Below, piece after piece: positions 4,205 through 62,934 of a stretch of 64,000 bases of DNA (position 1 is the stretch's first letter; every line of letters starts with the position of its first letter). The stretch lies in the NCBI GenBank assembly GCA_049799315.1, contig JBARHQ010000020.1, positions 21,085-85,084 of the forward strand, read 5' to 3'. Made by a program: the position numbers and the translations under genes. Source of the DNA: Thermodesulfovibrionales bacterium. GTDB taxonomy: Bacteria; Nitrospirota; Thermodesulfovibrionia; Thermodesulfovibrionales; UBA6898. The notes below the pieces were generated by a model. It was given only the letters and a program-made list of their open reading frames with translations. It had not been told where the DNA came from and made no database searches.

Positions 4205-4253
4205 TACTCTGTTTCCTCCTTGATATATTTGATTTATGCTCTGCAACTAGTAA

Positions 4254-17169: not shown

Positions 17170-17190
17170 TCGCATGAGGTGTATAACCCT

Positions 17191-17853
17191 ATGAAATGGT
17201 CTCTAAGCCGGGGATCCGGCTTCTCAGGCGGCCCAGCATCCGGCTTACCAGGCGATCAAGTCCTTGCCGGGAATGCAGAGGATGCGGTAAGCAAGAGTCT
17301 TATCTTTACAAGACTGCAGGACCTGATGGCATGGAGCCGCAAGAATTCGGTCTGGCCTTTCAACTTCGGACTCTCATGCTGTTATGTCGAGATGGCGGCA
17401 AGCCTCACGTCGAGGTACGATCTCGCCCGCTTTGGTTCCGAGGTGATACGCGGCACGCCGCGCGAGGCGGACCTGATGATCATCGCCGGCACGGTATTCA
17501 TCAAAATGGCGCCGATCATCAGGCGACTCTATGAACAGATGATGGAGCCGCGCTGGGTCATATCCATGGGCTCCTGCGCAAATTCCGGCGGGATGTACGA
17601 TATATACAGCGTGGTGCAGGGCGTTGATACCTTTCTCCCGGTAGACGTGTATGTCCCGGGCTGTCCGCCCAGACCCGAGGCCTTTATGGAAGGGCTGATG
17701 CTGCTCCAGGAAGCTATCGGAAAGGAGCGGCGTCCGGTTAGCTGGGCCGCAGGACCGCAAGGGGTTGAGATGCCTTCCAGGCCTTCTTTGCGGGACCGGA
17801 AGCGGCCTGCAAGACAGAAGGTAAAAGACCTGGCGCCGCCGGACCGTATATAG
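17191..17853 (+). CDS. nuoB: NADH-quinone oxidoreductase subunit B
   Basis: [17 protein letters not shown] and PGCPP motifs (N2 cluster ligands). Start is ATG 17191 (GAGGTG upstream) or GTG 17179. Confidence 0.9.
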
Positions 17854-19640: not shown

Positions 19641-20128
19641 GCCTGACAGACCAGGAACGATCCGAGATCGTCGAAGAAATCCGGGCACATCTCCATATGG
19701 GGGTCCATATGGGGGCCCACAAGCGGGCGGCCTGTGTGGAGGCACTGAAGATCGTCCAGCGCCGCCACGGCTGGATCTCTGACGAGATATGCGATATTGC
19801 GGAGATGCTCGAAATGACCGCTGATGAGGTTGACGGCATCGCTACATTTTACAGCTTCATATTCAGGAGGCCTGTCGGCAAACACCTCATCCTGATCTGT
19901 GACAGTGTATGCTGCTGGACCGTGGGGTATGAGCAGATACGCGAGCATCTTTGCTCACGTCTCGGCATACGCCCGGGTGAGACGAGCGCCGACGGCCAGT
20001 TCACGCTGCTGCCGGTCTCCTGCCTCGGGGCGTGCGATCATGCCCCTGCCATGATTATAGATGAAGACTTGCACGGGGACCTGAACCCGGCGAAAGTCGA
20101 TGAGATCCTGAGGAGATATACGGAATAA
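19637..20128 (+). CDS. nuoE: NADH-quinone oxidoreductase subunit E
   Basis: ATGA overlap with the nuoCD stop. [2Fe-2S] ligands in ICDSVCC...[11 protein letters not shown]. Confidence 0.9.
19692..19715. repeat. perfect 12-nt tandem duplication inside nuoE
   Basis: TCCATATGGGGG x2, in frame; encodes HMGV-HMGA. Confidence 0.9.
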
Positions 20129-21459
20129 TGGCCCGGATAGCCCGAATAGAAACAATAGAAAAGTTCGAAAGACCCCTGACAGGAAGTTTCCGCAAGGATG
20201 GGGCGGCGCTCAGCCTTCGGGAATATGAAAAGGCCGGCGGCTATCGGGCCCTGCGCAAGGCGCTCGGCTCGATGACGCCACTTGAGGTCCGGACATTTGT
20301 TCAGGATTCGAAGCTCCGTGGGCGCGGCGGCGCGGGTTTTCCGACCGGGCAGAAGTGGAGTTTTTTTCCGGTGGGCAGCGACGCGCCCAGGCCCAGGTAC
20401 CTGATAGCGAATGCTGACGAGATGGAGCCCGGCACCTACAAAGACCGCGTACTCATCGAGGGCAATCCGCATCAGCTGATTGAAGGGATCATTGTGAGTG
20501 CCTATGCGCTCGGGGTGGACCATGCCTATATCTTTCTCAGGTTGGAATACAAAGAGGCGGGCCGCCGGCTTATGAGGGCTATAGAAGAGGCGTACCGCAA
20601 CAACTATCTCGGCAAGCGGATACTCAATTCCGGAAACGCCGAATACGCCGAATTCGGCTTGGAACTCAGGCTCCATGTGAGCGCAGGCCGCTACATATGC
20701 GGGGAAGAGACCGCAATGCTGAACGCCCTTGAAGGCCGGAGGCCCGTGCCGCGTGCAAAGCCGCCCCATCCCCAAGTCTGCGGACTCTGGGGAAAGCCGA
20801 CGATCATCAATAACACAGAGACGTTCTGCAACGTACCTCATATCGTCAATAACGGCCCTGAGTGGTTTAAAGGATTAGGCCTCACCGGGGACAGCGGCAC
20901 GAAGATCTATGCGGTGAGCGGCAGGGTGAAGAACCCCGGCGCATTCGAACTTCCGATGGGCACCACGATCCGGGAGCTGCTTGAAGGGAAGGCGGGAGGG
21001 ATGAAGGACGGATACTCGTTCCGGGGCGTAATGCCGGGCGGCGCATCAACGGACTTTCTGATTGCGGACCATCTGGATGTGACGATGGATTTTGACTCTG
21101 TCCAGAAGGCGGGGAGCCGCCTGGGGACCGGCAACATGATCGTTCTCGATGACAGGACCTGCCCTGTCGGCATGGTCAATAACCTGATGCATTTCTTCGC
21201 GCGTGAATCCTGCGGCTGGTGTACCCCCTGCAGGGAGGGGCTGCCGTGGGCGGCTAAGATACTGCAGGGGGTCGAGGACGGCGCCGGGCATCCTGACGAT
21301 ATCGGACTGCTCGAATATCTCACGCGTCTGCTCTCTCCGGGCAATACCTTCTGTGCGCTCGCGCCAGGGGCCGTCGAGCCGCTCCAGAGCGCCTTGAAAT
21401 ATTTCAGGGCTGATTTCGAGCAGCACATAAGTGAAAAGAGATGCCCGTGGAAAAGATGA
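20128..21459 (+). CDS. nuoF: NADH-quinone oxidoreductase subunit F
   Basis: GRGGAGFPTGQKW (FMN/NADH site) and ESCGWCTPCREG (N3 cluster). Confidence 0.95.
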   Translation: MARIARIETIEKFERPLTGSFRKDGAALSLREYEKAGGYRALRKALGSMTPLEVRTFVQDSKLRGRGGAGFPTGQKWSFFPVGSDAPRPRYLIANADEMEPGTYKDRVLIEGNPHQLIEGIIVSAYALGVDHAYIFLRLEYKEAGRRLMRAIEEAYRNNYLGKRILNSGNAEYAEFGLELRLHVSAGRYICGEETAMLNALEGRRPVPRAKPPHPQVCGLWGKPTIINNTETFCNVPHIVNNGPEWFKGLGLTGDSGTKIYAVSGRVKNPGAFELPMGTTIRELLEGKAGGMKDGYSFRGVMPGGASTDFLIADHLDVTMDFDSVQKAGSRLGTGNMIVLDDRTCPVGMVNNLMHFFARESCGWCTPCREGLPWAAKILQGVEDGAGHPDDIGLLEYLTRLLSPGNTFCALAPGAVEPLQSALKYFRADFEQHISEKRCPWKR

Positions 21460-24233
21460 TGGCGACGATCTATGTTGACAATAAGCCATACCAGGTGGAA
21501 GGCGGTCAGAACCTCCTTGCCGCATGCCTCTCTATCGGCTTCGATCTGCCGTACTTCTGCTGGCATCCTGCCCTGCATTCAGCCGGAGCCTGCAGGCAGT
21601 GCGCGGTAAAGCAGTTCAGGGATGAAAAGGACACCAGGGGGAAGATTGTGATGTCCTGCATGACTCCGGTGACGGACGGATTGCGCATATCTGTCGATGA
21701 CCCTGACGCGAAGGCGTTCCGCGCCGGCATCATCGAGCTGCTGATGGCGAACCATCCGCATGACTGTCCGGTCTGTGACGAGGGGGGCGAGTGCCACCTC
21801 CAGGACATGACCGTCATGACCGGCCATGTATCGAGGAGATACCAGTTTAAGAAGAGGACCCACCGCAACCAGGACCTCGGGCCGTTCATAAACCATGAGA
21901 TGAACCGCTGCATCCAGTGTTACCGCTGCGTCCGTTTTTACCGGGACTATGCAGGCGGACGGGACCTTGAGGTCATGGGATCTCACCACCATGTCTATTT
22001 CGGACGGCACGAAGACGGTGCGCTCGAAAGCGAGTTCAGCGGCAACCTGATCGAGGTATGCCCGACCGGGGTTTTCACGGACAAGACACTGAAAAGACAT
22101 TACACCCGGAAATGGGACCTCCAGACAGCGCCCTCGGTCTGCGTGCATTGCAGCCTGGGTTGCAACATCTTCCCGGGTGAAAGATACGGCATGCTCCGCC
22201 GGATACTGAACCGCTACAACAGTGAGGTAAACGGCTACTTCCTCTGCGACAGGGGGCGCTTCGGATATGAGTTCGTCAATGACAGTCGCCGCGTCAGGAC
22301 ACCCCTGCTGAAGAGCGCACTGGTGAAGAACGCCCTGAGTAAGGACGATGAATCGGCCGGCTGGCAGAAGGGGGTGACGGTGAAAGATGTCCTGGGACAT
22401 ATCGGCGGACTGCTCCACTTTGGTGCGGACGTCATCGGCATCGGCTCACCCCGCGCATCGCTCGAGGCGAATTTTCTGCTGCGGGAACTGGTGGGGCCCG
22501 AGCACTTCTATGCAGGAATTTCATCCGTCGATTTCCTGCTGGTGCCAGAGATGCTCTCGATACTCCAGAATGGGCCGACCGCTCCGGCCTCGCTCCGGGA
22601 GGTCCGGGAGGCGGATGTCGTATTCATTCTCGGGGAGGACCTTACGAACACAGCACCGATGCTCGCACTGGCAGTGCGCCAGTCTGTCCGAACCGGACCG
22701 ATGGCTATAGCCGACAGGCTTATGGTCCCGGCATGGCATGATGCAGCAGTCAGGACAGCTGCCCAGAATGAAGTTCCTCTGCTCTTCATTGCGGCTGTTG
22801 AAAGCACGCGTCTCGACGATGCGGCGGGACTGGTCTATCGGGGCGCGCCGGATGATATCGCGAGGCTTGGTTTTGCGGTGGCAGCCGAGCTGAGCAGCAG
22901 CGCCACGGAGGTGACCGGCATGTCCGAAGATATGCGCGTCTATGTAAAGACCATTGCCGATGCCCTGCGGATGGCCTTACGGCCGGTGGTAATCTCGGGC
23001 GGCTGCTGCGGGAGTGTTTCAGTGATAAGGGCCGCGGCCAATGTTTCTGTTGCCCTCTGCGAAAAAGGGCACAGGGCCTCGCTCTGCTTCAGCCTCCCTG
23101 AATGCAACAGTATGGGGTTGGCACTCATGGGACCGAAGAGTCTGGATGAGGCGATTAACGCCTCCGGAAGGGGCGGTCCGGACACGCTCCTTATTCTGGA
23201 GAACGATCTCTTCCGCCGCGCTGACCGCGAAAGAATCAGGGGCTTCTTCGATGCCGCAAAAAATATTCTGGTGCTCGATCACACGCGCACCGCCACAGTG
23301 GAACAGGCGGACATAGTGCTTCCTGCTGCCACGTATGCTGAAGCGACAGGAACGATCGTCAATAACGAGGGACGCTGCCAGAGGTCATATGCGGTTTTTC
23401 CCCCTGCCGGGGAGATTCAGCCCAGCTCGAAATGGCTGCACGAAATTATCGTCGCTTCCGGACGGACAGGGTCTGCTGACACAGGGAATATCGATGGCAT
23501 TATGGCTGCCATGGCGTCTGCTATCCCCGCGCTGAGGGCGATCGGTGATGCGGGCTTCAATACTGGATTCTGGGCCGGAAGCCCGATTAAGGGTATGAAG
23601 ATCCCGCGTCAGCCGCACCGGTACAGTGGCCGCACCGCCATGAACGCTGACAAAAACGTGCATGAGCCGCGACCCCCCGATGACCCTGATTCTGCACTTT
23701 CTTTCTCGATGGAGGGATATGAGGGCAGGACGCCTGATGCCCTGGCCCCGAGGGCCTGGGCTCCGAAATGGAATTCTGTACAGGCTGTCAACATGACGGC
23801 GAAGGACACCAACGATATCAGCGGAGTGGGCTCCGGCGGAAAAGGGATACGACTTGTAGAACCCGGCAGCGGCATGCCGGTCTCTTTTTTCATGGATATT
23901 CCTGAGGCCTTCATCCCCCGAAGCAATGAACTCCTGATCGTCAGGCGAAGTCATATATTCGGGTCGGAAGAATTGAGCGCCCTGTCGCCAGCGGTCGCGG
24001 AACGCCGCCCGATGCTATATCTTGCCCTCAATAACATCGACGCCGAAAAACTCGGCATTGCAGAGGGCGGTCAAGCGGAAGTGCAGTTTGGGCGCTTGAT
24101 CTTCCGGCTTCCTGTCGTGCTGAGCACTGCGTTGCCGATGGGTATCGGGGGATTGCCGCTCGGTCTGCCGGGGCTCGAATGGGCAGCGCTGCCCGAATGG
24201 GCAACGGTGAGAAAGAGCGGAGAAAGGGCATGA
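21456..24233 (+). CDS. nuoG: NADH-quinone oxidoreductase subunit G (long form)
   Basis: ATGA overlap with the nuoF stop. Motifs [22 protein letters not shown] and [10 protein letters not shown]. Molybdopterin-oxidoreductase-like remainder. Confidence 0.9.
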
Positions 24234-25186
24234 GAGGGACGGCAGAACAGGTAATTGTTGTATTCGGGGTCCTTGCTGCAGCAGTCACGACCGCAGCAAT
24301 GCTGATATGGCTTGAACGCAGGCTGCTCGGACTCTGGCAGGATCGCTACGGGCCGAACCGCGTCGGACCGTTCGGGCTTCTGCAAGTGTTTGCCGACATG
24401 ATCAAGGTCCTGACCAAGGAGGACTGGATCCCGCCCTTTGCGGACAGGCCGGTCTTTATTATTGCGCCTGCAGTGCTTATGGTCAGCGTACTCCTATCTT
24501 TTGCGGTCATCCCCTTCAGCCCGGGTATCATGATAGCGGACCTCAATGTCGGCCTCCTCTTCTTCCTCGCCATGTCATCCCTTGGGGTTTATAGCATAGC
24601 GCTTGCGGGCTGGTCCTCCGATAGCAAATACTCGCTCCTCGGCGGACTGAGGGCCGCTGCCCAGATGCTGAGTTACGAGATATTCATGGGCCTTTCACTG
24701 ATGGGGGTGGTCATGCTCGCGGGCTCGTTCAGTCTCCGCGATATCGTGGAGGCGCAGCGGGGGATCTGGTACTGTGTGCCCCAGTTCGCCGGTCTGGTCG
24801 TCTTCATGATCGCCGGGATAGCAGAGACCCACCGGTTGCCTTTTGATCTGCCCGAGGCCGAAAACGAGCTGGTTGCGGGTTATCATTCCGAATATTCCGG
24901 TATGAAGTTCGGCATGTTCTTTGTGGGCGAGTATCTTGGGATAACTCTTATCTCGGCCCTTATCACGACGCTCTTTTTCGGCGGGTGGCTCGGACCATTT
25001 TTGCCGCCTATCGTCTGGTTTCTGCTTAAGACTTTTGTCTTTATCTGCGGCTTTATCCTCCTTCGGGCGTCGCTCCCGAGGCCGCGGTATGACCAACTGA
25101 TGTCGTTCGGCTGGAAGGTTATGCTGCCGCTCACCCTTCTGAATATCCTGATCACCGGGCTGGCTGTGCTGGCGGCCCGAGGATAG
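24230..25186 (+). CDS. nuoH: NADH-quinone oxidoreductase subunit H
   Basis: ATGA overlap with the nuoG stop. Contains [26 protein letters not shown]. Confidence 0.9.
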
Positions 25187-25193
25187 GGAGGGG

Positions 25194-25712
25194 ATGATGC
25201 TGAGCCTGCTCAGGACAATCTGGACAGTCTTCCTTCATATGTTCCGAAGGCGTGAGACGATTCTCTATCCCGAGGAGAGGCCATATCTGCCCCCACGCTG
25301 GCGTGGCAGGATCATCCTCTCGCGGGACCCTGACGGCGGGGAGAGGTGTGTAGCCTGCGGACTCTGTGCCGTCGCCTGCCCGGTGGATTGCATCGCCCTG
25401 CAGGCAACGGAAGATGCGCATGGGCGGCGGTATCCTGAATTCTTCCGCATCAATTTCTCGCGCTGCATTTTCTGCGGTTTTTGCGAGGAGGCATGCCCTA
25501 CATACGCGATCCAGCTCACCCCGGATTTCGAGATGGGAGAATATGACCGCAAAAATCTTGTCTACGAAAAGGAGGACCTGCTCATCAGCGGTCCGGGGAA
25601 GTATCCGGACTACAATTTCTATAAAGTCGCCGGACTCTCTATTGCCGGGAAGGACAAGGGGGAGTCTGAAAATGAGGACCCGCCGGTAGACGTCAGGGGC
25701 CTGATGCCATGA
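25194..25712 (+). CDS. nuoI: NADH-quinone oxidoreductase subunit I
   Basis: Two 4Fe-4S boxes: [12 protein letters not shown] and [12 protein letters not shown]. Confidence 0.9.
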
Positions 25713-26266
25713 ATGTGCCCTTTTTCATAGCAGGGGCCGTCGCGGTGCTCTCGACTCTGATGGTGATCACACGGCGCAACGCGGTGCATGCGCTTCTGTA
25801 TCTCATTGTCTCGCTGCTTTCAGTGGCGGTAGTGCTTTTCGTTATCGGAGCGCCGTTCGTCGCCGCGCTCGAGGTGATCATCTATGCCGGGGCGATCATG
25901 GTACTTTTTGTTTTCGTCATCATGATACTGAACATCGGCCCCCAGGCTGCCAGGCAGGAGCGATTATGGATGGCGCCTGAAACATGGGTCGGCCCGGCGC
26001 TTTTGTCGGCGGTTTTGATGGTTGAGTTTGCATATGTGCTGACAACATCCGGTGGATCTGCCGGTGCGCGGATAATCGATGCGGGAGAGGTTGGCGTGGC
26101 GCTTTATGGTCCTTATTTGCTGGGAGTAGAACTGGCGTCGATACTTCTTCTTGCGGGTGTAGTGGGCGCATATCACCTGGGCAGCCGGGGCCATCGGCCA
26201 GATTCCGGGCCAGATCACCGAATTAAGCCGAAAGACCGTAATGATCGTAAGGGCGGTGAGAAATGA
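25709..26266 (+). CDS. nuoJ: NADH-quinone oxidoreductase subunit J
   Basis: ATGA overlap. Hydrophobic protein of 185 aa in conserved nuo order. Confidence 0.85.
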
Positions 26267-26574
26267 TAGGGCCGGGTATGATGCATCAGGGACTCCTGCT
26301 TGCGGCAATCCTCTTTGTCCTTGGACTCGCCGGAGTCCTGATACGGCGGAATATCCTTTTTATGCTCATGTCGATCGAGATCATGCTGAATGCGGCCGGA
26401 CTCGCCTTTGTCGCAGCGGGTTCCGCTTGGGGACAGCCTGACGGCCAGGTATTCTTCATCTTCATTCTGACCATGGCGGGTGCAGAAGTCGCGGTCGGAC
26501 TCGCCCTTGTCCTCCAGATCTACCGAAGGTTCAGGACCCTGGATGCTGACGAAATCAGCAGGATGAGGGACTGA
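26263..26574 (+). CDS. nuoK: NADH-quinone oxidoreductase subunit K
   Basis: 103 aa, 3 TM, ...[16 protein letters not shown]...; conserved position. Confidence 0.85.
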
Positions 26575-26575
26575 C

Positions 26576-28456
26576 ATGCGAGACCTCCTCTGGCTTGTCC
26601 CATTGCTGCCGTTTGCGGGATTCGTTCTGCTGATTTCAGCCGGGGCGCGGATGCCCCGGCAGCTGGCCGCGTCCGTCGGCACGGGCTCGATCGGCATATC
26701 CGCGCTCCTGTCGATGCTCATCGCCTTTGACTTAATAACCACTGGCACACATGCCTTTTCGCAGACCCTTTGGACTTGGGTGCAGGTGGGCGGATTCGGG
26801 CCACGCATGGCACTGTACCTCGATCCCCTGTCTGTCGTCATGATGTTCGTCATCACCTTTGTCGGGTTTTTAATCCAGATCTACTCAGTCGAATATATGA
26901 AAGACGATGAGGGCTTCAGCCGTTTCTTCGGCTATATGAACCTGTTCATAGGCTTCATGCTCATTCTGGTTCTGGCGGACAACCTGCTCCTTCTGTATCT
27001 GGGCTGGGAGGGTGTCGGTCTCTGCAGCTACCTGCTCATCGGATTCTGGTATGCTGACCCTGCAAACGGGCATGCGGCGCGCAAGGCATTTGTGGTGACG
27101 AGGGTGGGCGATTCGGCAATGGCTGTCGGGGTTTTTCTCGTCTTCACGCATCTCGGTACGCTCCAGATACAGGATATGCTCCTGAAGGCCCAGCAGCAGT
27201 GGCCGGCCGGATCCGCCATCGCCATAACTGCAGCGGCATTGCTTTTGGCGGGGGCGGTAGGAAAGTCGGCGCAGCTTCCGCTCCAGACATGGCTCCCTGA
27301 CGCAATGGCCGGTCCTACACCGGTGAGTGCGCTCATCCATTCTGCAACGATGGTGACGGCCGGCGTCTACCTGATCGCGCGGCTGCATGTCCTGTTTGAG
27401 CTCGCTCCGCCGGTACGGGCTGCGGTGGCGATAATCGGGGCGTTCACTCTGCTCATGGCGGGTCTGAGCGCCCTTGTGCAGAGGGACATAAAACGCATAC
27501 TTGCCTATTCCACGATAAGCCAGATCGGATACATGTTTTTGGCCCTCGGGGCCGGGGCCTGGACAGCCGCTGTCTTTCATCTCATGACCCATGCTTTTTT
27601 TAAGTCCCTCCTCTTTCTCGGGGCCGGGGCAGTTATACTCTCCCTGAACCACGAACAGGACATATCGAGGATGGGGGGGCTCAGGTCCAGGATGCCTTTC
27701 GTCTTTTGGCCCTTTCTGATCGGTTCTGCCTCGCTTTCGGCATTGCCTTTTGTGACAGCCGGATTTTACAGCAAGGAGCTAATACTCCGCTCGGCATGGA
27801 ATGCGGGGACTCTCGGCCCATGGCTCTGGGCAGCGGGCGTGGCGGGAGCCCTGATAACCTCACTCTATTCGTTTCGGCTCGTATTTACCATATTTTATGG
27901 CGTGCCAAAGTCTGCTGTGACGGGAAAGCCGGGCATGACGATGCGGGTGCCCCTTGTCATTTTGGCAGCGCTCTCAGTGACGGGCGGTTTTATACAGTGG
28001 CCCATAGATTCTTCCGGGGCTTTTTCTGTTTTTCTTTCAGGTGTCCTGCCTTCCATCCAGGAACTGCAGCAGAACGGCACCGATCTTCTCCTTCAATTTA
28101 TCGCAGCGCTGGCTTCTGTATCCGGGATACTCATCGCCTATCTCGTCTATATTCGCTCTCCTCATCTGGCTGACGGTCTGCCCGGCAATGCAAGTATTTT
28201 GCAGGCGTTGCAGCGGTTCTGGTTTTCAGGATGGGGGTTTGACACGCTCTATGACACGCTCATCGTCAAGCCATTTCTCAGGTTTGCCGGCTTCATCAAA
28301 AACGATCTGATAGACCTTTTCTTCGAGGGTGTTGCATGGTACAGCGAGATCTCACACGGCCTACTCAGCTCCACCCAGACAGGTCGGTTGAGGTGGTACG
28401 CACTCTGGATCGCGGCCGGAGCTGTTATCATAATCGGGGTGGTGGTCTTCAGATGA
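26576..28456 (+). CDS. nuoL: NADH-quinone oxidoreductase subunit L
   Basis: 626 aa antiporter-like subunit (WEGVGLCSYLLIGFW..., KSAQLPLQTWLPDAMAGPTPVSALIHSATMV). Confidence 0.9.
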   Translation: MRDLLWLVPLLPFAGFVLLISAGARMPRQLAASVGTGSIGISALLSMLIAFDLITTGTHAFSQTLWTWVQVGGFGPRMALYLDPLSVVMMFVITFVGFLIQIYSVEYMKDDEGFSRFFGYMNLFIGFMLILVLADNLLLLYLGWEGVGLCSYLLIGFWYADPANGHAARKAFVVTRVGDSAMAVGVFLVFTHLGTLQIQDMLLKAQQQWPAGSAIAITAAALLLAGAVGKSAQLPLQTWLPDAMAGPTPVSALIHSATMVTAGVYLIARLHVLFELAPPVRAAVAIIGAFTLLMAGLSALVQRDIKRILAYSTISQIGYMFLALGAGAWTAAVFHLMTHAFFKSLLFLGAGAVILSLNHEQDISRMGGLRSRMPFVFWPFLIGSASLSALPFVTAGFYSKELILRSAWNAGTLGPWLWAAGVAGALITSLYSFRLVFTIFYGVPKSAVTGKPGMTMRVPLVILAALSVTGGFIQWPIDSSGAFSVFLSGVLPSIQELQQNGTDLLLQFIAALASVSGILIAYLVYIRSPHLADGLPGNASILQALQRFWFSGWGFDTLYDTLIVKPFLRFAGFIKNDLIDLFFEGVAWYSEISHGLLSSTQTGRLRWYALWIAAGAVIIIGVVVFR

Positions 28457-30168
28457 TTCTGCCCCTCATGATACTGATCCCGTTTGCCGGCGCAATCCTC
28501 GCCGGGGCCGTCGGCAGAAAAAATCCCCTGTGGTCCCGGGTCATCTCTTTGCTGGCGCTTGGTCTCGGACTGGGTGCTGCTTTTTCATTGTGGAGTCGGG
28601 CATTATGGAGTCCGGCCATGAACATGAGCGGCCTAGGAGAGGACTATCTCTGGATAGCGGAGTTCAATCATGAATGGATACCCGAACTCGGGATATCTCT
28701 CCACCTTGCGATAGACGGCCTCAGCCTGCTGCTGGTCCTTCTTACGTTTCTTCTCGGCATCGTGGCGGTAGTCTGTTCATGGACAGAGATACAGAAAGGG
28801 ACCGGATTTTTTCACCTCAACCTTATGCTCACGATCACCGGCGTCCTCGGGGTCTTTCTCAGCCTCGACCTGTTTCTTTTTTATTTTTTCTGGGAACTGA
28901 TGCTCGTGCCGATGTACTTTTTGATTTCCGTATGGGGGCATGAGGGCCGCGGTTACGCCTCCGTCAAATTTTTTATCTTCACGCAGTTGAGCGGACTGCT
29001 CATGCTCCTTGGCATCCTCGGGCTCTACTTCATCCATGGCCGCGCAACGGGGACCTATACATTTGACTATACCAGGTTGATCGGGACGACCCTCGGTCCG
29101 CGCGAGGGCTTCTGGATCATGCTCGGATTTTTTGCCGCCTTTGCGGTCAAGCTTCCTGTTATCCCCTTTCATACGTGGCTGGCCGACGCCCATACAGAGG
29201 CCCCGACAGCGGGCAGCGTTCTCCTTGCCGGGCTCCTGCTGAAGACGGGCGCATACGGCCTGTTCCGTTTTCTGCTCCCGCTGTTCCCCGAGGCGGTTGA
29301 AGGTTTCCGCATTGCGGGCATGGCCCTCGGCGTTGCGGGCATCATTTACGGGGCGTTGCTCGCTTATGCACAGACAGACCTCAAGCGGTTAATCGCCTGC
29401 AGCAGCATAAGCCATATGGGGTTTGTCCTGCTTGGCATATTCTCGATGAACCAGCTCGGCCTGCAGGGTGCCGTCATACAGATGCTCTGTCACGGCTTCA
29501 GCACCGGCGGCCTCTTCATCATTGCGGGTGCGCTTCAGGAACGGCTACATACGCGGGACCTGGCTGCCATGGGCGGGATATGGCCTCTTGCGCCACGCAT
29601 GGCCGGGGCCGGCCTCTTCTTTGCGCTCGCCGCGCTCGCGCTTCCAGGCCTCGGGAATTTCATCGGAGAATTCCTGGTGCTGCTCGGTGCATATCAGGTG
29701 AATGGCTCTCTGACCGCAATAGCTGCGGCAGGGATGGCGCTCTCCGCTGTTTATTCCCTCCGTATTGTCCAGAGCATTTTTCATGGCAGGAGAAGTGAAA
29801 GTCTTCAGGTCACCGACCTTTCCCCGAGGGAGATGACGGTGATGGCCTGCATGGCGGCTGTTATCATATTCCTCGGACTCTTTCCTCAACCGGTGCTCGA
29901 TATTTCGGATCCCGCACTGAAGAGGATCATTCCGTCGATGCGGAACGACAAAACAGTGCAGTCCGTTAACATTGACGGCTTCGTAAAAAGTCGTCATTCC
30001 CGCGAAGGCGGGAATCCAGATGCTCGCAACGTATTGAAAAGAATGGATTCCCGATTAAGGCCTTCGGGAATGACAGCCACGGAAAGGACTTTTTACGATG
30101 GTGTCAAAATTGATATGACTCAGGTTCATATCAACCCGGCAGGGCCGGCACGGGAGAGAACAGAGTGA
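28453..30168 (+). CDS. nuoM: NADH-quinone oxidoreductase subunit M with a C-terminal extension of about 60-70 aa read through a palindromic repeat element
   Basis: ATGA overlap with the nuoL stop (start MILPLMILIPF...). The antiporter-like body ends around ...FLGLFPQPVLD. The ORF then continues through 29981-30098 (..VKSRHSREGGNPDARNVLKRMDSRLRPSGMT..) to a TGA overlapping the nuoN GTG. Confidence 0.85.
   Translation: MILPLMILIPFAGAILAGAVGRKNPLWSRVISLLALGLGLGAAFSLWSRALWSPAMNMSGLGEDYLWIAEFNHEWIPELGISLHLAIDGLSLLLVLLTFLLGIVAVVCSWTEIQKGTGFFHLNLMLTITGVLGVFLSLDLFLFYFFWELMLVPMYFLISVWGHEGRGYASVKFFIFTQLSGLLMLLGILGLYFIHGRATGTYTFDYTRLIGTTLGPREGFWIMLGFFAAFAVKLPVIPFHTWLADAHTEAPTAGSVLLAGLLLKTGAYGLFRFLLPLFPEAVEGFRIAGMALGVAGIIYGALLAYAQTDLKRLIACSSISHMGFVLLGIFSMNQLGLQGAVIQMLCHGFSTGGLFIIAGALQERLHTRDLAAMGGIWPLAPRMAGAGLFFALAALALPGLGNFIGEFLVLLGAYQVNGSLTAIAAAGMALSAVYSLRIVQSIFHGRRSESLQVTDLSPREMTVMACMAAVIIFLGLFPQPVLDISDPALKRIIPSMRNDKTVQSVNIDGFVKSRHSREGGNPDARNVLKRMDSRLRPSGMTATERTFYDGVKIDMTQVHINPAGPARERTE
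29981..30098. repeat. nested palindromic REP/MITE-like element (copy A)
   Basis: Outer arms tcgtaaaaagtc / gactttttacga. Inner arms gtcattcc / ggaatgac. Two internal hairpins: attcccgc-gaag-gcgggaat and attcccga-ttaaggcct-tcgggaat. Shares TCATTCC, GGATTCCCG and TTCGGGAATGACA blocks with copy B at 36086-36161. Confidence 0.75.
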
Positions 30169-31628
30169 GCGCCGGCGATTTCATGGTTCTGTCCCCCCTG
30201 ATCGCTCTTGCGGTCGCATCGGTCGTCATTATGCTCGGCATCTCTGTGCAGCGGGGGCATCGTGTCACCTTCCTGATAACACTGGCCGGACTCGGATCGT
30301 CTTTTGGGATGTTGGTGCGGGTATACCGGATATATGGTCTTGCAGACCGCCAGGTCACCCGGCTGATGCTCGTGGACGACTTTGCTATTTTCTATCTGGG
30401 CTTGATTCTTATCGCCGCATGCATCATCGTTGTCCTCTCTTTCGAATATCTGAAGCAGCGGGCAGGCGATAATGAGGAGTACTATCTGCTGCTGCTCGTC
30501 GCCGTACTCGGCGCGATGACCATAGTCGTCAGCAGCCACTTTGCCTCGTTCTTCCTCGGACTCGAACTCTTGAGCGTCTCCCTCTATACCATGGTGGCAT
30601 ACCTTGATGGGCGGGATGCGGGCATCGAGGCAGGGATCAAGTACCTCGTCCTCGCCTCGGTTTCGGCGGCCTTTCTGCTCTTCGGCATCGCCCTGGTCTA
30701 TGCAGCCACGGGGACAATGCATATCGGCACGCTTGCATCACTCGCGGCAGCGCTCCCCATGCAGGCCGGAGGAGTCAACCCGCTCATTCTGGCAGGCTTC
30801 GGATTGATCATCGCAGGTCTCGGGTTCAAGCTGGCGCTCGTTCCATTTCATCTCTGGACCCCGGATGTCTATGAAGGAGCCCCTGCGCCGGTCACTGCGT
30901 TTATTGCGACGGTCTCGAAGGGGGCTGTACTGGTATTCCTGATCCGGTTTGGCGCGTCAATGAAGATCCAGGAAAATCCCTCGCTCTTTGCTGTATTTTC
31001 GCTGCTCGCGGTTCTCTCCATGTTCACCGGGAACCTGCTTGCCCTGTTCCAGAAAAATATAAAACGGCTGCTCGCCTATTCCTCGATAGCGCATATCGGG
31101 TACCTCCTTGTCCCATTTATGGCCGGCGGAAGAATCGGTCTGAGCGCGACGGCCTATTATCTTGCCGCCTATTTTGTCACGACACTGGGGGCCTTCGGCG
31201 TCGTCACACTCCTGTCAGGGAAGGGGCGTGAGGCAGACCGCATCGATGACTACAGAGGTCTGGCAATACGCCATCCGTGGCTGGCCGGTTCACTTACCGC
31301 GATGCTTTTCTCTCTTGCGGGTATGCCGGTGACCGCCGGGTTTATCGCCAAGTTTTATATCATTGCGGCCGGGGCTGACTCCTCGCTTTGGTGGCTCGTA
31401 ATGGCCCTGGTCATTAACAGTGCGCTCGGCCTGTTTTATTATCTGCGCGTCGTCGCGGCCATATACACTCAGGAGAAAGAGGCGCATGGAGCACAGACTA
31501 AGAAGTATACGCTTTCGCTTTCCGGAGCCGTCATCCTCTCTGTACTGACCGTTCTGCTTATCTGCTTCGGAGTTTATCCGCCGCTTCTCATTGGGGTGAT
31601 AGAAAAGACGGTCCTCAGACTAATCTGA
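30165..31628 (+). CDS. nuoN: NADH-quinone oxidoreductase subunit N
   Basis: 487 aa antiporter-like subunit. GTG 30165 (GTGA overlap, GGGAGAG upstream) or ATG 30183. Confidence 0.9.
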   Translation: MSAGDFMVLSPLIALAVASVVIMLGISVQRGHRVTFLITLAGLGSSFGMLVRVYRIYGLADRQVTRLMLVDDFAIFYLGLILIAACIIVVLSFEYLKQRAGDNEEYYLLLLVAVLGAMTIVVSSHFASFFLGLELLSVSLYTMVAYLDGRDAGIEAGIKYLVLASVSAAFLLFGIALVYAATGTMHIGTLASLAAALPMQAGGVNPLILAGFGLIIAGLGFKLALVPFHLWTPDVYEGAPAPVTAFIATVSKGAVLVFLIRFGASMKIQENPSLFAVFSLLAVLSMFTGNLLALFQKNIKRLLAYSSIAHIGYLLVPFMAGGRIGLSATAYYLAAYFVTTLGAFGVVTLLSGKGREADRIDDYRGLAIRHPWLAGSLTAMLFSLAGMPVTAGFIAKFYIIAAGADSSLWWLVMALVINSALGLFYYLRVVAAIYTQEKEAHGAQTKKYTLSLSGAVILSVLTVLLICFGVYPPLLIGVIEKTVLRLI

Positions 31629-32623: not shown

Positions 32624-33601
32624 TTAATTCCATATATGGAGGCCCTTGAGTAGTGCCCTGAGGCCTGCGAAGAGCAGCAGGCCGATAACCATATACCGGA
32701 TAGCCGTCGGCTTCGCCTTTGCAAGGATTCTGACGCCGACGATTGAGCCGAGCATGATGCCGATGATCGACGGTACGACCATCATCGGAAGGACGGCGCC
32801 GTTATTTACATAGATCCAGGCAGCAGAGGTGTCGGTGATCGAGAGCAGGAATTTGCTGGTCGCAACCGAGACCTTCAGAGGTGCGCCCATCATAAGGTTA
32901 AGGACGGGTACGTTGGCCCAGCCGGCGCCGAGTCCGAACATGCCTGCCATAACGCCGATGATGATAAAGGTCGCAAGTCCCTGCGGTGTACGGTGGATTT
33001 TCCAGTTGATGTCCTGGCCGGTAGAGGCCTCGTGGTAGATGCCGCTTATCCTGAGCGCTGTCGAGAGGTTATCTGCCTGCGGGACTTCGGGATATTCGGA
33101 TTTTTTCGCCATCAGCATAATGGCGACGATACCGAGAATGGTCGCGCCGAGGGCTGTCTGTATGACGTTTGTCGGAAGCGCGAGACCTATCATTGCCCCG
33201 ACAATCGCACATGAAGAGGCGATCAGCGCAACGGGGAGGGCAAGCCTGAGGTCGGCCATGCCTTTCTTTAACAGTCCGGGACCTGCGGCAAGGGCACCCG
33301 CCAGTGCGACCAGTAGACCGGCTCCTCTTACAAAATCAAGGTGGAACGGGAAAAAACCGCCGATGATCGGGACGAAAAGTACGCCGCCGCCGACACCTCC
33401 GAGAACAGCGGCAATTCCAAGAAAAAAGGTGACGACAAAGAGTATCAGCGGCCATCCCCACCAGGGCATAGTTGATGCGGCTGCTGTTGCCGGTGCTGCT
33501 GTGGCCAAAGGTTCGCCGGATGCGAACGCAAGGCCAGCCGCCATCAGAACCGCAAGGGCGATTACTGCCAACGACAAGAGTAAAACGTTTTTCTTTACCA
33601 T
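32624..33601 (-). CDS. TauE/SafE (TSUP) family anion exporter
   Basis: 325 aa. GGVGGGVLFVPIIGG motif. Eight or so TM segments after a signal-like N-terminus. Confidence 0.85.
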   Translation of the reverse strand: MVKKNVLLLSLAVIALAVLMAAGLAFASGEPLATAAPATAAASTMPWWGWPLILFVVTFFLGIAAVLGGVGGGVLFVPIIGGFFPFHLDFVRGAGLLVALAGALAAGPGLLKKGMADLRLALPVALIASSCAIVGAMIGLALPTNVIQTALGATILGIVAIMLMAKKSEYPEVPQADNLSTALRISGIYHEASTGQDINWKIHRTPQGLATFIIIGVMAGMFGLGAGWANVPVLNLMMGAPLKVSVATSKFLLSITDTSAAWIYVNNGAVLPMMVVPSIIGIMLGSIVGVRILAKAKPTAIRYMVIGLLLFAGLRALLKGLHIWN

Positions 33602-57799: not shown

Positions 57800-58282
57800 G
57801 TGGATTTAGGCGTCCTTAAAAAAGGTTTCTTCATAGCTATTATTTCCTCGTCTGCGATCTTCTCATGTTCACATAGCCCCTTCATACCGGCAATTAATGC
57901 CACGTCGGAGGGAGTAGCGATAAAGGGGTATGATCCGGTTGCATATTTCACAGACGGACGGCCGATCAAGGGGAAGCCTGAATTCAAATACGCATGGAAC
58001 ACTGCGGAGTGGAGGTTTTCCAGCTCCGGTCATCTTGAGATGTTTATGCAAGATCCTGAAAAATATGCGCCCAGATACGGGGGCTACTGTGCCTATGCCG
58101 TGGGCCAGGGAAAAACCGCCGATATCGACCCCGACGCATGGACAATTTCTGAAGGAAAGTTATATCTCAATCTGGACATGGATGTGCAGAGATTATGGGG
58201 GAAGGACATGCAGATGTATATCCGAAAGGCCGACGAGAACTGGCCGCGAATGCTTAGCAAAAATAAAGGAGGTATCAAATGA
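57800..58282 (+). CDS. YHS-domain protein (family that also has selenoprotein members), with N-terminal export/anchor segment
   Basis: GTG start with GAGGAT upstream. Hydrophobic N-terminus. AIKGYDPVAYFTDGRPIKG...WRFSS..HLEMFMQDPEKYAPRYGGYCAYAV. Confidence 0.7.
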   Translation: MDLGVLKKGFFIAIISSSAIFSCSHSPFIPAINATSEGVAIKGYDPVAYFTDGRPIKGKPEFKYAWNTAEWRFSSSGHLEMFMQDPEKYAPRYGGYCAYAVGQGKTADIDPDAWTISEGKLYLNLDMDVQRLWGKDMQMYIRKADENWPRMLSKNKGGIK

Positions 58283-58836
58283 AATACTTGACCATATTCT
58301 TGGGGGTCCTGCTGACTGGATTCGTTGCAATCAGCATAGTTTTTTACGGCGGAATGGGAAAACAGGCCGGGGCGACAAGCGTAGCGTCGCCGTCGCCGAT
58401 AAAGGTGTATTCAGCTGAAAAAGGAGGCTACATCATGAGCGAAACAGTTGTTAAAACCGAAGAAGAGTGGAAAAAACTTCTGACGCCGGAACAGTTCCAT
58501 ATCCTGCGGAAAAAAGGGACTGAGCGGGCATTCTCCGGAATATACGACAAGAATTATGAGCACGGCATATACCGTTGTGCGGGCTGCGGCCTCGATCTTT
58601 ACAGGTCTGAAGACAAATTCGATTCCGGCACCGGCTGGCCGAGTTTCACGATGCCGATCGCTCCTGAGAACATCATCACCAGACCGGACAACAGCTTCTT
58701 CACTCATCGCACCGAGGTGGTCTGTCGCCGCTGCAACGGTCATATCGGTCATGTCTTTGACGATGGCCCGAAGCCGACCGGGCTGCGCTACTGCATGAAT
58801 TCAGCTGCCCTGCAATTCGTGGCGACCAAAAAATAA
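58279..58836 (+). CDS. msrB: peptide-methionine (R)-S-oxide reductase MsrB with N-terminal TM anchor (long form)
   Basis: ATGA overlap with the YHS gene stop and AAAGGAGG upstream. TM segment YLTIFLGVLLTGFVAISIVFYGG. MsrB motifs CAGCG, CRRCNGHIGHVFDDGP and RYCMNSAAL. A second SD+ATG lies in frame at 58435. Confidence 0.85.
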   Translation: MKYLTIFLGVLLTGFVAISIVFYGGMGKQAGATSVASPSPIKVYSAEKGGYIMSETVVKTEEEWKKLLTPEQFHILRKKGTERAFSGIYDKNYEHGIYRCAGCGLDLYRSEDKFDSGTGWPSFTMPIAPENIITRPDNSFFTHRTEVVCRRCNGHIGHVFDDGPKPTGLRYCMNSAALQFVATKK

Positions 58837-58862
58837 GCGGGTACCAACAGGGAGGAGACACA

Positions 58863-59471
58863 ATGAAAATGCTCATTATCACGATCATGGGATTGTCGTT
58901 GATACTCATCGCAATTACCCCAGTTATTGCTGCAACTAATCTTGAGAAAGCGACTTTTGCAGGTGGATGTTTCTGGTGCATGGAGCACCCGTTCGACGAG
59001 ATTCCAGGTGTTGTTTCGGTCACCTCTGGCTACACTGGCGGACAGAAAAAGAATCCCACTTATAAAGAAGTCTCGGCCGGAGGAACTGGGCATGCTGAGT
59101 CAGTTCAGGTCGTCTATGATCCGTCAAAGGTGACCTACGAGAAGCTCTTGAACGTTTTTTGGCACAACATCGACCCGACTGCCGAAGATCGACAGTTCTG
59201 TGATTCAGGGCATCAGTATAGAAGCGCTATTTTCTATCATACTGAAGAACAGCACCCGGTGGCGGTCCAGTCGAAGTCTCTATTGGAGAAGAACAAACCC
59301 TTCAAGGGACGGGTTGTGACTGAGATTGTGCAGGCCACCGAGTTTTACCCAGCCGAGGATTATCACCAGCACTATTACAAGAAAAACCCGATCCGTTACA
59401 AATTCTACCGGACTAACTGCGGTCGTGACCGTCGGCTTAAGGAGTTGTGGGGTAGCGACGCGGGCCATTGA
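58863..59471 (+). CDS. msrA: peptide-methionine (S)-S-oxide reductase MsrA with signal peptide
   Basis: Signal MKMLIITIMGLSLILIAITPVIAA. Catalytic GGCFWCMEH. Remainder is typical MsrA (GHAESVQVVYDP...). Confidence 0.9.
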   Translation: MKMLIITIMGLSLILIAITPVIAATNLEKATFAGGCFWCMEHPFDEIPGVVSVTSGYTGGQKKNPTYKEVSAGGTGHAESVQVVYDPSKVTYEKLLNVFWHNIDPTAEDRQFCDSGHQYRSAIFYHTEEQHPVAVQSKSLLEKNKPFKGRVVTEIVQATEFYPAEDYHQHYYKKNPIRYKFYRTNCGRDRRLKELWGSDAGH

Positions 59472-59618: not shown

Positions 59619-60533
59619 TTATTCAACTCGGATCATATAGCTTGTGGTGATTATCTCGCTCCCGTATCCCACCTGCCCAAATATTTGATATAAGCCTGCA
59701 GCAGGGAAAATAGCATGAACTTCAATTTTAGGACCGAATTTATCGGGAACTGTCATCTTCATCTGCATGTGATGTTCATGATGCCCCATAGCTGGCATCC
59801 CAGGCAGTTCGCCATGAGCGTGAATGAAATGTGTGAGATCCCCCGATATTATCGCAAGATGCATTGGTGCCGAGAGCCAAGGTTCCAGTTTGGTGACAGG
59901 TTCTCCATTCTTTGTGAACGTATAACTGAGTGTAACTTCTTTCCCTGAAGTTATGCGCTCAGGAGTGGTCGCAAACGTAACATCAAGACCCCCAAATCTC
60001 TTTTTCCTGGAATAATCCTGTTTTGTAGGTCCCATCCTAGGTTCACCAGCAACATCAACCACGAAATGTTTCGAAAGCGGTGAATCATTGACGGCAAAGT
60101 CGATTCCGACGATATAACGACCAGCTTTTGGAAAGGTAAATCGTACAGGGTAGAGAGCGGTTTTTTTCATCTCGGGTGTTATCGGTCCGAAATCCTGAGG
60201 ATGAATGTGGGCAAAGACATCGAAATCCTGACTCGCAATTATGACGTGTATAAGTCTATCATGGTGTATAGTTAGGCCCTCTACAGGTTTCCCTTTGCTA
60301 TCCTTGAACGAAAACATGATAGCTGTGGGCGTCCCCACTGTAATATGCTCCGGTTCCGTTTTAATGCCTGCAATAATGTTATTTCCACCTTCGCCCTGTA
60401 TTTTTTGCATGTCCTTGTGCTGATGACCCTGCATTCCGCTCATCTCTGCAAAAACTTGGGTTGCGCCTAAGATAAGGAGTCCGCCAAAGAACATTGTGCC
60501 TGTCATTGCCAAAATCTTTTTTATTTTATTCAT
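59619..60533 (-). CDS. secreted two-domain His/Met-rich protein (probable metal-binding)
   Basis: 304 aa with signal peptide. EMSGMQGHQHKDMQ near the N-terminus. Repeated domains each end in an HxH-type motif (FAHIHPQDFGP; FIHAHGELPGMPAMGHHEHHMQMKM). No family name recognised. Confidence 0.6.
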   Translation of the reverse strand: MNKIKKILAMTGTMFFGGLLILGATQVFAEMSGMQGHQHKDMQKIQGEGGNNIIAGIKTEPEHITVGTPTAIMFSFKDSKGKPVEGLTIHHDRLIHVIIASQDFDVFAHIHPQDFGPITPEMKKTALYPVRFTFPKAGRYIVGIDFAVNDSPLSKHFVVDVAGEPRMGPTKQDYSRKKRFGGLDVTFATTPERITSGKEVTLSYTFTKNGEPVTKLEPWLSAPMHLAIISGDLTHFIHAHGELPGMPAMGHHEHHMQMKMTVPDKFGPKIEVHAIFPAAGLYQIFGQVGYGSEIITTSYMIRVE

Positions 60534-60635: not shown

Positions 60636-61960
60636 CAGTGCTGTCCGGTTAAAAAACCGCTGAACACTTAAAACTATATGACAGATAAGAATATTTGCAA
60701 TATTTTTAGTGGTGTCGACTTGAATACACGTCGACGAATGGGCAATCCTTTCGGAACTGAGATTTCCGGAGGTCCCAATGTACACTGGCAAAACCCTATT
60801 TGCGCAAATCATGGATTTTCTTCCTTGGAGCACATTTCATCGTATCGTTACTCGCTATGGAGGCGACCATCGTATTCGTACCTTTCGCTGCACGGAGCAG
60901 TTTCGGATTCTGGCGTTCGCCCAATTGACCTATCGGGAGAGTCTGCGCGACATAGAGGCGTGCCTGATGGCTCAGACATCGAAGCTCTATCATATGGGTA
61001 TCAGTGGAGCGATTTCTCGATCGACTCTGGCCGACGCAAACGAATCCCGCGACTGGCGCATCTACGCCGATTTTGCACAGAGACTGATCGCTCAAGCAAG
61101 ACGGCTCTATGCAGGCGAGGATTTGGGACTCGACCTTTCCAACACGGTTTATGCTCTGGACTCCACGACCATCGATCTTTGTCTTTCGGTGTTTCCATGG
61201 GCTCCATTCCGCGATACAAAAGCAGCGGTCAAAGTCCATACTCTCTTGGATCTCAAGGGTGCAATCCCGAGTTTCATCCATATCACCGACGGCAAGTGGC
61301 ACGACATCAACATGCTCGACCTGCTTGTTCCGGACCCCGGAGCGTTCTACATTATGGATCGAGCATACATGGACTTTGCTCGCCTCTATGCGTTGCACCG
61401 GGCAGGAAGTTTTTTCGTGACCCGCACGAAGTCGAACCTCAATGCGAGGCGCGTATACTCTGCGTCCGTCGACCGGTCCTCTGGCATTATCTGCGACCAG
61501 AGCATTATGTTGAACGGCTACTACAGTCATTGTCATTACCCCGAACATTTGCGTCGTATTCGCTTCAAAGATACCGAGAGAGACAAAACGCTGATCTTTC
61601 TTACCAACAACACGACCCTGCCGGCACTCACTATTGCTGCCCTCTACAAAAGCCGTTGGCAGATCGAACTGTTCTTCAAATGGATCAAACAGCATCTTCG
61701 CATCAAACGGTTTTATGGCACATCGGAAAACGCAGTGAAGACCCAAATCTGGATCGCCGTTTCCATGTATGTCCTCATCGCCATCATAAAGAAAAAGCTC
61801 AATCTCGATACGTCCCTTTATACATTGTTACAGATTCTCTCGATTACCCTTTTCGAGAAAATGCCTTTACAACAAGCATTTCAGACCACCGGAGAACGCT
61901 CAGCTATGCTCGAAAACCAAAACCAGTTGAATTTATTCACTTCTTAACCGGACACTAGTG
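60636..61960 (+). mobile_element. IS4-family insertion sequence (1325 bp), apparently intact
   Basis: Terminal inverted repeats CAGTGCTGTCCGGTTAA (60636-60652) and TTAACCGGACACTAGTG (61944-61960), 14/17 complementary. Single DDE transposase ORF. 9-bp direct repeats flank the element. Confidence 0.85.
60778..61947 (+). CDS. IS4-family DDE transposase (DUF4372-type N-terminus)
   Basis: 389 aa. MYTGKTLFAQIMDFLPWSTFHRIV...ALDSTTIDL...YIMDRAY...YKSRWQIELFFKWIKQHLRIK (Y-R-E-K signature). Confidence 0.9.
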   Translation: MYTGKTLFAQIMDFLPWSTFHRIVTRYGGDHRIRTFRCTEQFRILAFAQLTYRESLRDIEACLMAQTSKLYHMGISGAISRSTLADANESRDWRIYADFAQRLIAQARRLYAGEDLGLDLSNTVYALDSTTIDLCLSVFPWAPFRDTKAAVKVHTLLDLKGAIPSFIHITDGKWHDINMLDLLVPDPGAFYIMDRAYMDFARLYALHRAGSFFVTRTKSNLNARRVYSASVDRSSGIICDQSIMLNGYYSHCHYPEHLRRIRFKDTERDKTLIFLTNNTTLPALTIAALYKSRWQIELFFKWIKQHLRIKRFYGTSENAVKTQIWIAVSMYVLIAIIKKKLNLDTSLYTLLQILSITLFEKMPLQQAFQTTGERSAMLENQNQLNLFTS

Positions 61961-62002: not shown

Positions 62003-62467
62003 TCATATTTCTTCTGTCACAAGCTGGTCTTTGATTGCGATGCAGCCGATCACGCTCTGGGCCGCTGGGCAGAGGTGCAGATATGATGAGAATGCCTCCC
62101 GGGCTGCTCCGATCTGTTCTTTCGAGACTTTCAGGTGATAGGTGACTCGTATCGCGGTCATTTTTAGCACTCCATTGACGTTTTCGATATCGCCCTCTCC
62201 CTCAGCCCTATACCGGTCTTCTCTAGTAAAGATTTTCTTTCCGGCCAACACTGTGGCCAGTGTACCCATCATTCAGGCGGCAGTGGCAGCAATAATATGG
62301 TCGAGCGTTGCTGCATGCTCCTCTTCAGGCTCGACCTTGTAAAACCTCTTGATTCCCCCGTGGACACCATAATAGACAGGCTCGTTGAATCCCTCGATCA
62401 TCGCCCTTCTGGTCGGGCCTTTCTCTCTAACGATCGTCACGCGTGACGTATGAACAATCTCTCCCAT
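62003..62467 (-). CDS. OsmC-family peroxiredoxin-like protein with in-frame TGA at the catalytic Cys position (candidate selenoprotein, or pseudogene)
   Basis: Track ORFs 62273-62467 and 62003-62272 are contiguous in one frame: ...TLDHIIAATAA-TGA(62275-62273)-MMGTLATVLAGKK...SSYLHLCPAAQSV... OsmC proteins have ..A(L/A)A(G/A)C.. at this position and a second C-P motif near the C-terminus. A hairpin lies 13-35 nt after the TGA. Confidence 0.65.
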
Positions 62468-62934
62468 GAACTCCTCCTTTATTCCTGATTATATGGCAAA
62501 TTACGCCTTTTGCATAGAAGACTCGAAGAGGACATGGATTTTCTCAGAACCATTTCATTCATCTGGAAATCGTGAATCATTAGGCTACACCTGGGGTGAA
62601 ACTTAGTGGCTGCAAGTGAGATTTGGGACTCGGACCCGTTGGTGTTTCTTGCAGGATGTACATCGCAAAGCAAGCCTAAATTCAGTTGTGAATGTTTGAA
62701 TCGGAAGTCCTGTGTCAGCTAAAAACCAGCCGGCGAGGGTTAGCCGGAAGCAAAGATCTCAGCCTTGCTTAAGCGCTGGTCACAGAGCCGTGCATACTTT
62801 GGTGTGATACTAACCTTTCCGTGCTGTCGCGCGGCATTCATAAATTATAGAGAGAAACAAACACCGACCAATCTCTTGTCGCAAGAGAGTGCGAAAAAGG
62901 TGGAACTGTCCCACTCCCCAAAAAGCCCTGCTTC

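Follow-up and report, generated by a model that had tools for sequence, protein, structure and literature searches.

The locus and its interrupted reading frame

Two ORFs, 62273..62467 (64 aa) and 62003..62272 (89 aa), lie in the same minus-strand frame of the analysed DNA (the window, i.e., the whole stretch of 64,000 nucleotides) and are parted by a single TGA (Table 1). A sequence-only reading of this DNA had taken them for one TGA-interrupted frame with a joined length of 154 aa, and on the minus strand both claims were borne out. Translation across the codon gave ...TLDHIIAATAA-TGA(62275-62273)-MMGTLATVLAGKKI... with no frameshift and no other stop, the frame going on unshifted after the internal TGA as ATG ATG GGT..., and the codon count of the joined gene is 64 + 1 + 89 = 154. 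This confirmed that 62467-62276 and 62272-62003 are one gene, whose single frame is broken by TGA alone. When the stop was replaced by Cys, the protein matched the Pfam OsmC family (PF02566) marginally over residues 56-144, at 28.3 bits with a cutoff of 27.5. The second Cys that had been noticed downstream, in HLCPAAQSV, was present as Cys133.

Table 1. Features of the gene and its surroundings, in window positions
Feature	Position	Strand	Basis or remark
OsmC/Ohr-fold gene, 154 codons, with in-frame UGA (predicted Sec65)	62003..62467	-	frame, Pfam OsmC, full-length homologues, fold, catalytic mapping
Shine-Dalgarno-like AAAGGAGGAG	62472..62481	-	5' of ATG 62467; read directly from sequence
Start codon ATG	62467-62465	-	opens the 154-codon frame
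Internal TGA, predicted selenocysteine codon, residue 65	62273..62275	-	at peroxidatic-Cys position; recurs in relatives
Predicted bacterial SECIS hairpin, stem CUGGCCA/UGGCCGG (7 bp), loop CAGUGU (6 nt)	62241..62260	-	folding, family pairing, frozen synonymous sites
Cys133 codon, motif LCPAAQS, predicted resolving cysteine	62069..62071	-	100 % conserved in the 77 TGA genes analysed; Ohr/OsmC alignment
Cys142 codon, third cysteine, motif IGCI	62042-62044	-	100 % conserved in the 77 TGA genes analysed
Stop codon TGA of the gene	62005-62003	-	closes the 154-codon frame
YHS-domain ORF	57800-58282	+	Pfam YHS 30.4 bits
Cluster of YHS-domain ORF, msrB (SelR domain) and msrA	57800-59471	+	uninterrupted frames; ~3 kb from the OsmC/Ohr gene
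His-rich secreted 304-aa protein	59619-60533	-	weak YtkA-like match
IS4-type transposase (DUF4372 + DDE_Tnp_1)	60778-61947	+	~55 nt 3' of the OsmC/Ohr gene
nuo (NADH dehydrogenase)-like ORF run after a cytochrome b-like gene	15041-31628	+	translations read; ordinary housekeeping
Two TauE/SafE-family exporters flanking the nuo-like region	2876-4246 and 32624-33601	-	Pfam

The immediate flanks of the gene are formed by the YtkA-like gene and the IS4-type transposase on one side and by a YtxH-like gene on the other. A second, independent assembly of the same organism (L083; Logan assembly, run SRR28041855) has a contig that stops 42 nt beyond the gene, consistent with the repeat of an IS element breaking the assembly. 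The nearby YHS protein, pointed out earlier as belonging to a family with Sec-containing members, was found as described but is irrelevant here and plays no part in the finding. Taken with the His-rich protein, the YHS-domain ORF may hint at the handling of copper or metals.

Clustering of the neighbours in 80 related loci (see below) did not reveal a conserved operon partner, with at most 9 loci sharing a cluster. Since no neighbour is conserved over these loci, the gene is regarded as a stand-alone unit whose function rests on homology. Where the neighbours are informative, they are oxidative-stress or repair genes, namely msrB and msrA in the window and, around the orthologue in L031, ORFs that were named from their translations as cytochrome c peroxidase-like, MsrA-like and pyridine-nucleotide-disulfide-oxidoreductase-like. 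In L015, L017, L021, L035, L036, L051 and L078, which are Syntrophobacteraceae-like, the orthologue is followed after ~130-160 nt by a gene for tRNA-Asn(GTT), a lineage-specific synteny.

The TGA codon in related genes and in public annotation

A GTDB scan with one genome per species yielded at least 551 matching stretches, of which the best 80 loci were kept. The hosts of these 80 loci were Nitrospirota and Thermodesulfobacteriota (Syntrophales, Syntrophobacteraceae, Desulfomonilia and others). At the codon aligned with residue 65, the best 80 of at least 551 stretches had TGA in 77 cases, TGC in two and TGT in one, and neither TAA nor TAG occurred; with the window gene added, TGA was present in 78 of 81. 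The recurrence of the TGA split in 77 of 80 related loci is far beyond chance, since TGA closes only 16 of the 32 long window ORFs, and an internal codon that is TGA only is therefore unlike the outcome of random nonsense mutations. The pairwise nucleotide identity of the TGA genes analysed had a median of 71 % and a minimum of 62 %, and both halves of the related loci were 70-86 % identical to the window gene, so that conservation extends on either side of the TGA. An alignment with Cys-containing OsmC homologues, which had been proposed as a check, placed Cys at the position of the TGA: residue 65 was Cys in 10 full-length database proteins, and TGC or TGT was present at the DNA level in L061, L070, L079, L084 and L085.

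It could be argued that the gene is a pseudogene, or that the sequence or its assembly is in error, since a nonsense mutation or a miscalled base in a Cys codon is a single substitution (TGC/TGT to TGA) and an IS element adjoins the gene. However, the 465-nt gene was identical, including the TGA, in the second independent assembly (L083), and the same TGA recurs in 77 further genomes at species level, where each half is strongly conserved as protein, and there are neither frameshifts nor other stops. This explanation is effectively refuted already, and we give it next to no weight.

A search of a 5.8-billion-protein collection retrieved 2,322 relatives, of which ~20 were full length (152-164 aa). 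The rest were fragments, either of ~89-91 aa opening with MMGT... or of ~85-116 aa closing with ...AATAA/G, broken at exactly the residue-65 codon. In the full-length database proteins residue 65 was C or W, and when two of the W proteins were followed back to DNA, both had TGA. W at residue 65 is thus an artefact of gene calling with another genetic code, and a Trp variant of the protein was rejected. The NCBI, JGI, ENA and Logan gene predictions examined all give the subfamily as two ORFs, whose public names are "hypothetical protein" or "organic hydroperoxide reductase OsmC/OhrA". In species-representative genomes (at least 551 stretches) and in thousands of entries from metagenomes, the gene is represented by two truncated ORFs or with a spurious Trp. 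A dedicated Sec-flagged profile, such as exists in NF041052, would mend these annotations and raise the selenoproteome counts for Nitrospirota, Syntrophales and Syntrophobacterales.

The agreement of these gene callers, together with the ATG ATG directly 3' of the TGA, would fit two real small genes (64 aa and 89 aa) that are coupled by UGA-AUG termination-reinitiation and whose products assemble as a split OsmC-like protein. However, the two Met residues are equally conserved in single-chain Cys homologues (CMMGT) and for this reason represent part of a helix and not a start signal. Moreover, unlike the start codon of the gene, the internal ATG has no Shine-Dalgarno-like sequence 5' of it (GCCACTGCCGCC-TGA-ATG), the split would delete the catalytic residue itself, and split genes should tolerate TAA or TAG, whereas 77 of 77 stops in the related loci were TGA. 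Thus, a pair of split genes is highly unlikely.

A further possibility is that the UGA is read through without Sec, either as a reassigned codon (Trp in code 4, Gly in code 25) or by SECIS-independent insertion of near-cognate Trp or Cys. Several database entries do give W at this position, and no Sec machinery was found in the window. ARAGORN detected no tRNA at all in the 64 kb, hence no tRNA-Sec, and selA, selB and selD were absent from the 20 window ORFs that were scanned with Pfam. The extra 8 kb of L083 past the window end contained no Sec genes either, and a window scan for TGA-joined ORF pairs returned only adjacent genes and antisense noise and no further selenoprotein gene. Indirect support for Sec decoding comes from the orthologue-bearing Nitrospirota locus L031, in which a tRNA-Sec gene (L031:14273-14370, minus strand) is located 4 kb from the copy of the gene; small ORFs lie on both flanks of this tRNA-Sec and no selB-sized ORF is found beside it. 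Anaerobic Thermodesulfobacteriota have been described as belonging to the lineages richest in selenoproteins (PMC13188914).

Read-through without Sec is contradicted by the use of TGA as a terminator: it closes half of the long window ORFs (16 of 32) as well as the present gene, and it is therefore not reassigned. In addition, the hosts, Nitrospirota and Thermodesulfobacteriota, do not belong to the lineages that use code 4 or code 25. Apart from TGA, the residue-65 column contained Cys codons only and never TGG, and a peroxidatic-Cys site occupied by Trp would be inactive. Plain read-through would also leave the conserved hairpin described below unexplained. We therefore consider this explanation very improbable.

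The hairpin downstream of the UGA

The sequence-only reading had drawn two alternative hairpins after the UGA and judged them compatible with a bacterial SECIS element. Both can indeed be drawn, and the CUGGCC/GGCCGG hairpin proved to be dominant and conserved, whereas ACACUG-GCCA-CAGUGU was not supported by the family (70 % of cells paired, compared with 24-64 % in slid controls) and was rejected. The conserved hairpin occupies 13-32 nt after the UGA (nucleotides 16-35 from the U of UGA), with the loop beginning 19 nt after it. Folded alone, it had a free energy of -14.9 kcal/mol and made up 95 % of the ensemble (z = -4.5), and 0 of 200 shuffled sequences were as stable. Across 75 distinct TGA genes, 98.5 % of the cells in the seven stem pairs were paired, whereas controls with the 3' partner slid gave 1.5-54 %, and unguided RNAalifold predicted the same stem. 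Covariation in the stem was thin, with one double-changed pair (C-G to U-A in 4 sequences, probably one clade); the other changes were G-C to G-U and A-U to G-U. A doubly compensated stem, CUGGCAG/CUGUCAG, was present in L068. The second loop position is a nearly invariant G (>90 % of the family), and the window loop CAGUGU has A there and G at positions 3 and 5.

Since the stem is encoded by codons of the conserved peptide L-A-x-x-L-A-G, we analysed synonymous sites. At conserved positions with four- or six-fold degeneracy, codons 69-76 had an entropy of 0.20-0.92 bits, whereas the median at such positions in the rest of the gene was 1.78 bits (Mann-Whitney p = 2e-4). GCC accounted for 92 % of the Ala71 and Ala75 codons, compared with 40 % of the other Ala codons of the same genes, and CUG for 90 % of the Leu70 and Leu74 codons, compared with 33 % elsewhere in the same genes. 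These frozen synonymous sites show that the nucleotide sequence as such is under selection, in the location and at the spacing expected of a bacterial SECIS, and the proposed SECIS-compatible hairpin was in this respect upheld. They suit a SECIS and not a start region, which again argues against split genes.

The Cys-encoding genes gave a mixed picture. In L061, L070 and L079, the three Cys genes of the 80 loci, the stem was lost (-1.6 to -5.0 kcal/mol, z ~0), whereas the TGC genes at L084:1001-1462 and L085:273-731 still formed a stem of 6 bp on or close to the SECIS site. Because two of the five Cys genes examined keep the stem, TGA genes are not alone in having the hairpin, and its loss in Cys genes is partial evidence, being true of L061, L070 and L079 and false for L084 and L085. 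The stems of the latter two may be relics ("fossil" SECIS elements) after a recent change of TGA to TGC; they are also compatible with the conserved peptide favouring such palindromes.

A gathering scan of the whole 64-kb window matched no Rfam family. An Rfam SECIS model was matched neither in that scan nor in a permissive scan of 62150-62330, which returned one chance lncRNA match (E = 6).

Fold, proposed function and comparison with known systems

The position of the TGA within the fold was assessed with a profile built from Cys-containing homologues and compared with solved Ohr and OsmC structures. Against Ohr 6d9n (E = 0.0022) column 65 of the profile corresponded to the Cys of SAC-F and Cys133 to the Cys of VC-PYS. 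With a weaker E-value, the comparison with Thermus thermophilus OsmC (1ukk) placed column 65 in AGC-FS and Cys133 in GC-PVS. The AlphaFold2 model of P0001, a Cys homologue that is 75 % identical, had a pLDDT of 82 and a pTM of 0.78, with low confidence for residues 29-39. When this model was compared with the PDB by Foldseek, the best 50 matches were all OsmC/Ohr proteins (probability 1.00, E ~1e-5, TM ~0.5); the large rmsd of these matches would be expected of a monomer model set against chains of domain-swapped dimers. As the profile and fold comparisons map residues 65 and 133 onto Ohr/OsmC, the TGA takes the place of the peroxidatic Cys, as had been claimed for the catalytic Cys of the OsmC/Ohr family, and the resolving Cys is kept.

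Outside these positions, R14, R20, E50, D56 and H57 are invariant, and the sequence alignments to Ohr/OsmC begin at residues 56-60. The N-terminal segment EGFxEPxYYGVHGGIKxFY is highly conserved in the subfamily. Cys142, which is replaced by S or A in a few homologues from the databases, may serve as another resolving cysteine or as a relay.

Taken together, we consider it very probable that the gene encodes a 154-aa thiol (here selenol) peroxidase of the OsmC/Ohr fold, in which UGA65 is decoded as selenocysteine by means of the downstream hairpin. The hairpin, located within the coding sequence 13-32 nt 3' of the UGA, would act as the SECIS and recruit SelB with Sec-tRNA(Sec) to the ribosome. 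The selenolate of Sec65 would then attack a hydroperoxide and become a selenenic acid, with which Cys133 would condense into an intramolecular selenenylsulfide, and a dithiol donor would reduce the latter and regenerate the enzyme. These reaction steps of the Sec65/Cys133 pair are carried over from the established Ohr/OsmC mechanism, and we infer Sec insertion, peroxidase activity, the substrate and the reductant alike. In the characterised Ohr enzymes the reductant is dihydrolipoamide on lipoylated proteins.

The protein could also be a selenoprotein in which the Sec65/Cys133 pair has another redox job, for example as a sulfur or selenium carrier or a disulfide reductase, comparable to the uncharacterised YhfA-type OsmC relatives. 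The subfamily has a conserved N-terminal VHGGIKxFY region of its own and a third conserved Cys, Cys142, and it lacks a conserved genomic partner. Its likeness to the characterised Ohr/OsmC enzymes is remote (11-21 % identity, with Pfam barely over its cutoff), the scores for TIGR03563 and NF041052 are far under the cutoffs, and residues 29-39 of the model are of low confidence. Because the likeness is remote and the activating Arg/Glu were not located, a different redox role retains some plausibility. However, the protein keeps the CP motif and the two catalytic Cys positions, and the neighbours, where informative, are oxidative-stress genes, so that we regard another redox job as rather unlikely and favour the peroxidase.

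If the peroxidase reading is true, an Ohr-type enzyme with a peroxidatic Sec joins Sec-Prx and Sec-MsrA in the antioxidant repertoire of strict anaerobes, and the subfamily offers natural Sec/Cys pairs for asking what selenium gives to a peroxidase of the OsmC fold.

From three sequences, the Sargasso Sea study predicted a family of OsmC-like selenoproteins (COG1765, motif UxxT; PMC1088965), which has been carried through later surveys and reviews (PMC2398784, PMC9312934, PMC13188914). The earlier statement that OsmC-like selenoproteins had been predicted by Zhang, Fomenko and Gladyshev in 2005 was thus correct, as their paper lists such a family (PMC1088965). The present gene shares with that family, which is of the COG1765/YhfA type, the OsmC superfamily, a bacterial origin, an in-frame UGA with a SECIS-like hairpin, Cys homologues and a predicted redox function (PMC1088965, PMC2398784, PMC13188914). 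However, it is set apart by its profile score and by the published motif. The NCBIfam profile NF041052 for the "OsmC-related (seleno)protein" gave 15 bits (E = 0.017) with a curated cutoff of 95 bits, and the sequence here is U-M-M-G-T, with Thr at +4, in place of UxxT. The profile of the SACOL1771-family peroxiredoxin (TIGR03563) likewise gave 18.9 bits with a curated cutoff of 166 bits. Moreover, the closest solved relatives of the present protein are the Ohr/OsmC two-Cys peroxidases, with the resolving Cys kept. The hosts also differ, the 2005 family being known from marine plankton and the present genes from anaerobic Nitrospirota and Thermodesulfobacteriota of soil, peat and groundwater. 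Hence the initial identification as an OsmC-like selenoprotein was supported, whereas membership of the described and curated OsmC-like selenoprotein family did not hold, and the score of 15 versus 95 bits on NF041052 implies a separate subfamily.

With the Ohr/OsmC two-Cys peroxidases (PDB 6d9n, 1zb9, 1n2f, 1qwi, 1ukk) the protein has in common the fold, the size of ~140-155 aa, a peroxidatic residue in the long helix at the centre and, ~65 residues further on, a resolving Cys within C-P-x-x. It differs from them by the predicted Sec in place of the peroxidatic Cys, by an identity of 11-21 %, by the EGFxEPxYYGVHGGIKxFY segment and by the extra Cys142. The hairpin resembles the SECIS of the Escherichia coli fdhF type in following the UGA directly within the coding region and in having a small apical loop with G/U. 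Its predicted stem of 7 bp is short, however, and has no counterpart to the bulged U of fdhF, and the element falls under no Rfam model. The spacing from UGA to loop is 16-37 nt in the bSECISearch model, and the present ~19 nt falls inside this range. The Sec-containing Prx (TxxU) and the bacterial GPx-like proteins are, like the protein predicted here, thiol peroxidases of anaerobes with a peroxidatic Sec for Cys (PMC13188914), but they have the thioredoxin fold, which is unrelated to the OsmC fold.

OsmC-like proteins whose catalytic Cys is replaced by Sec via an in-frame SECIS are already known, and as such a replacement has been predicted since 2005, no new principle is involved. A literature search found no description of such an OsmC/Ohr selenoprotein subfamily, and the supplementary tables of selenoproteome surveys may contain one. 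Novelty may lie in the subfamily as such, in how widespread it is and in the systematic way in which it is mis-annotated. With moderate confidence, we regard the gene as the founding example of a second, undescribed and uncurated OsmC/Ohr selenoprotein family, consisting of Ohr-type Sec/Cys peroxidases that would be Sec-dominant (~96 % TGA), very widespread in anaerobic Nitrospirota and Thermodesulfobacteriota (at least 551 stretches and 2,322 database fragments) and accompanied by Cys members with a fossil SECIS.
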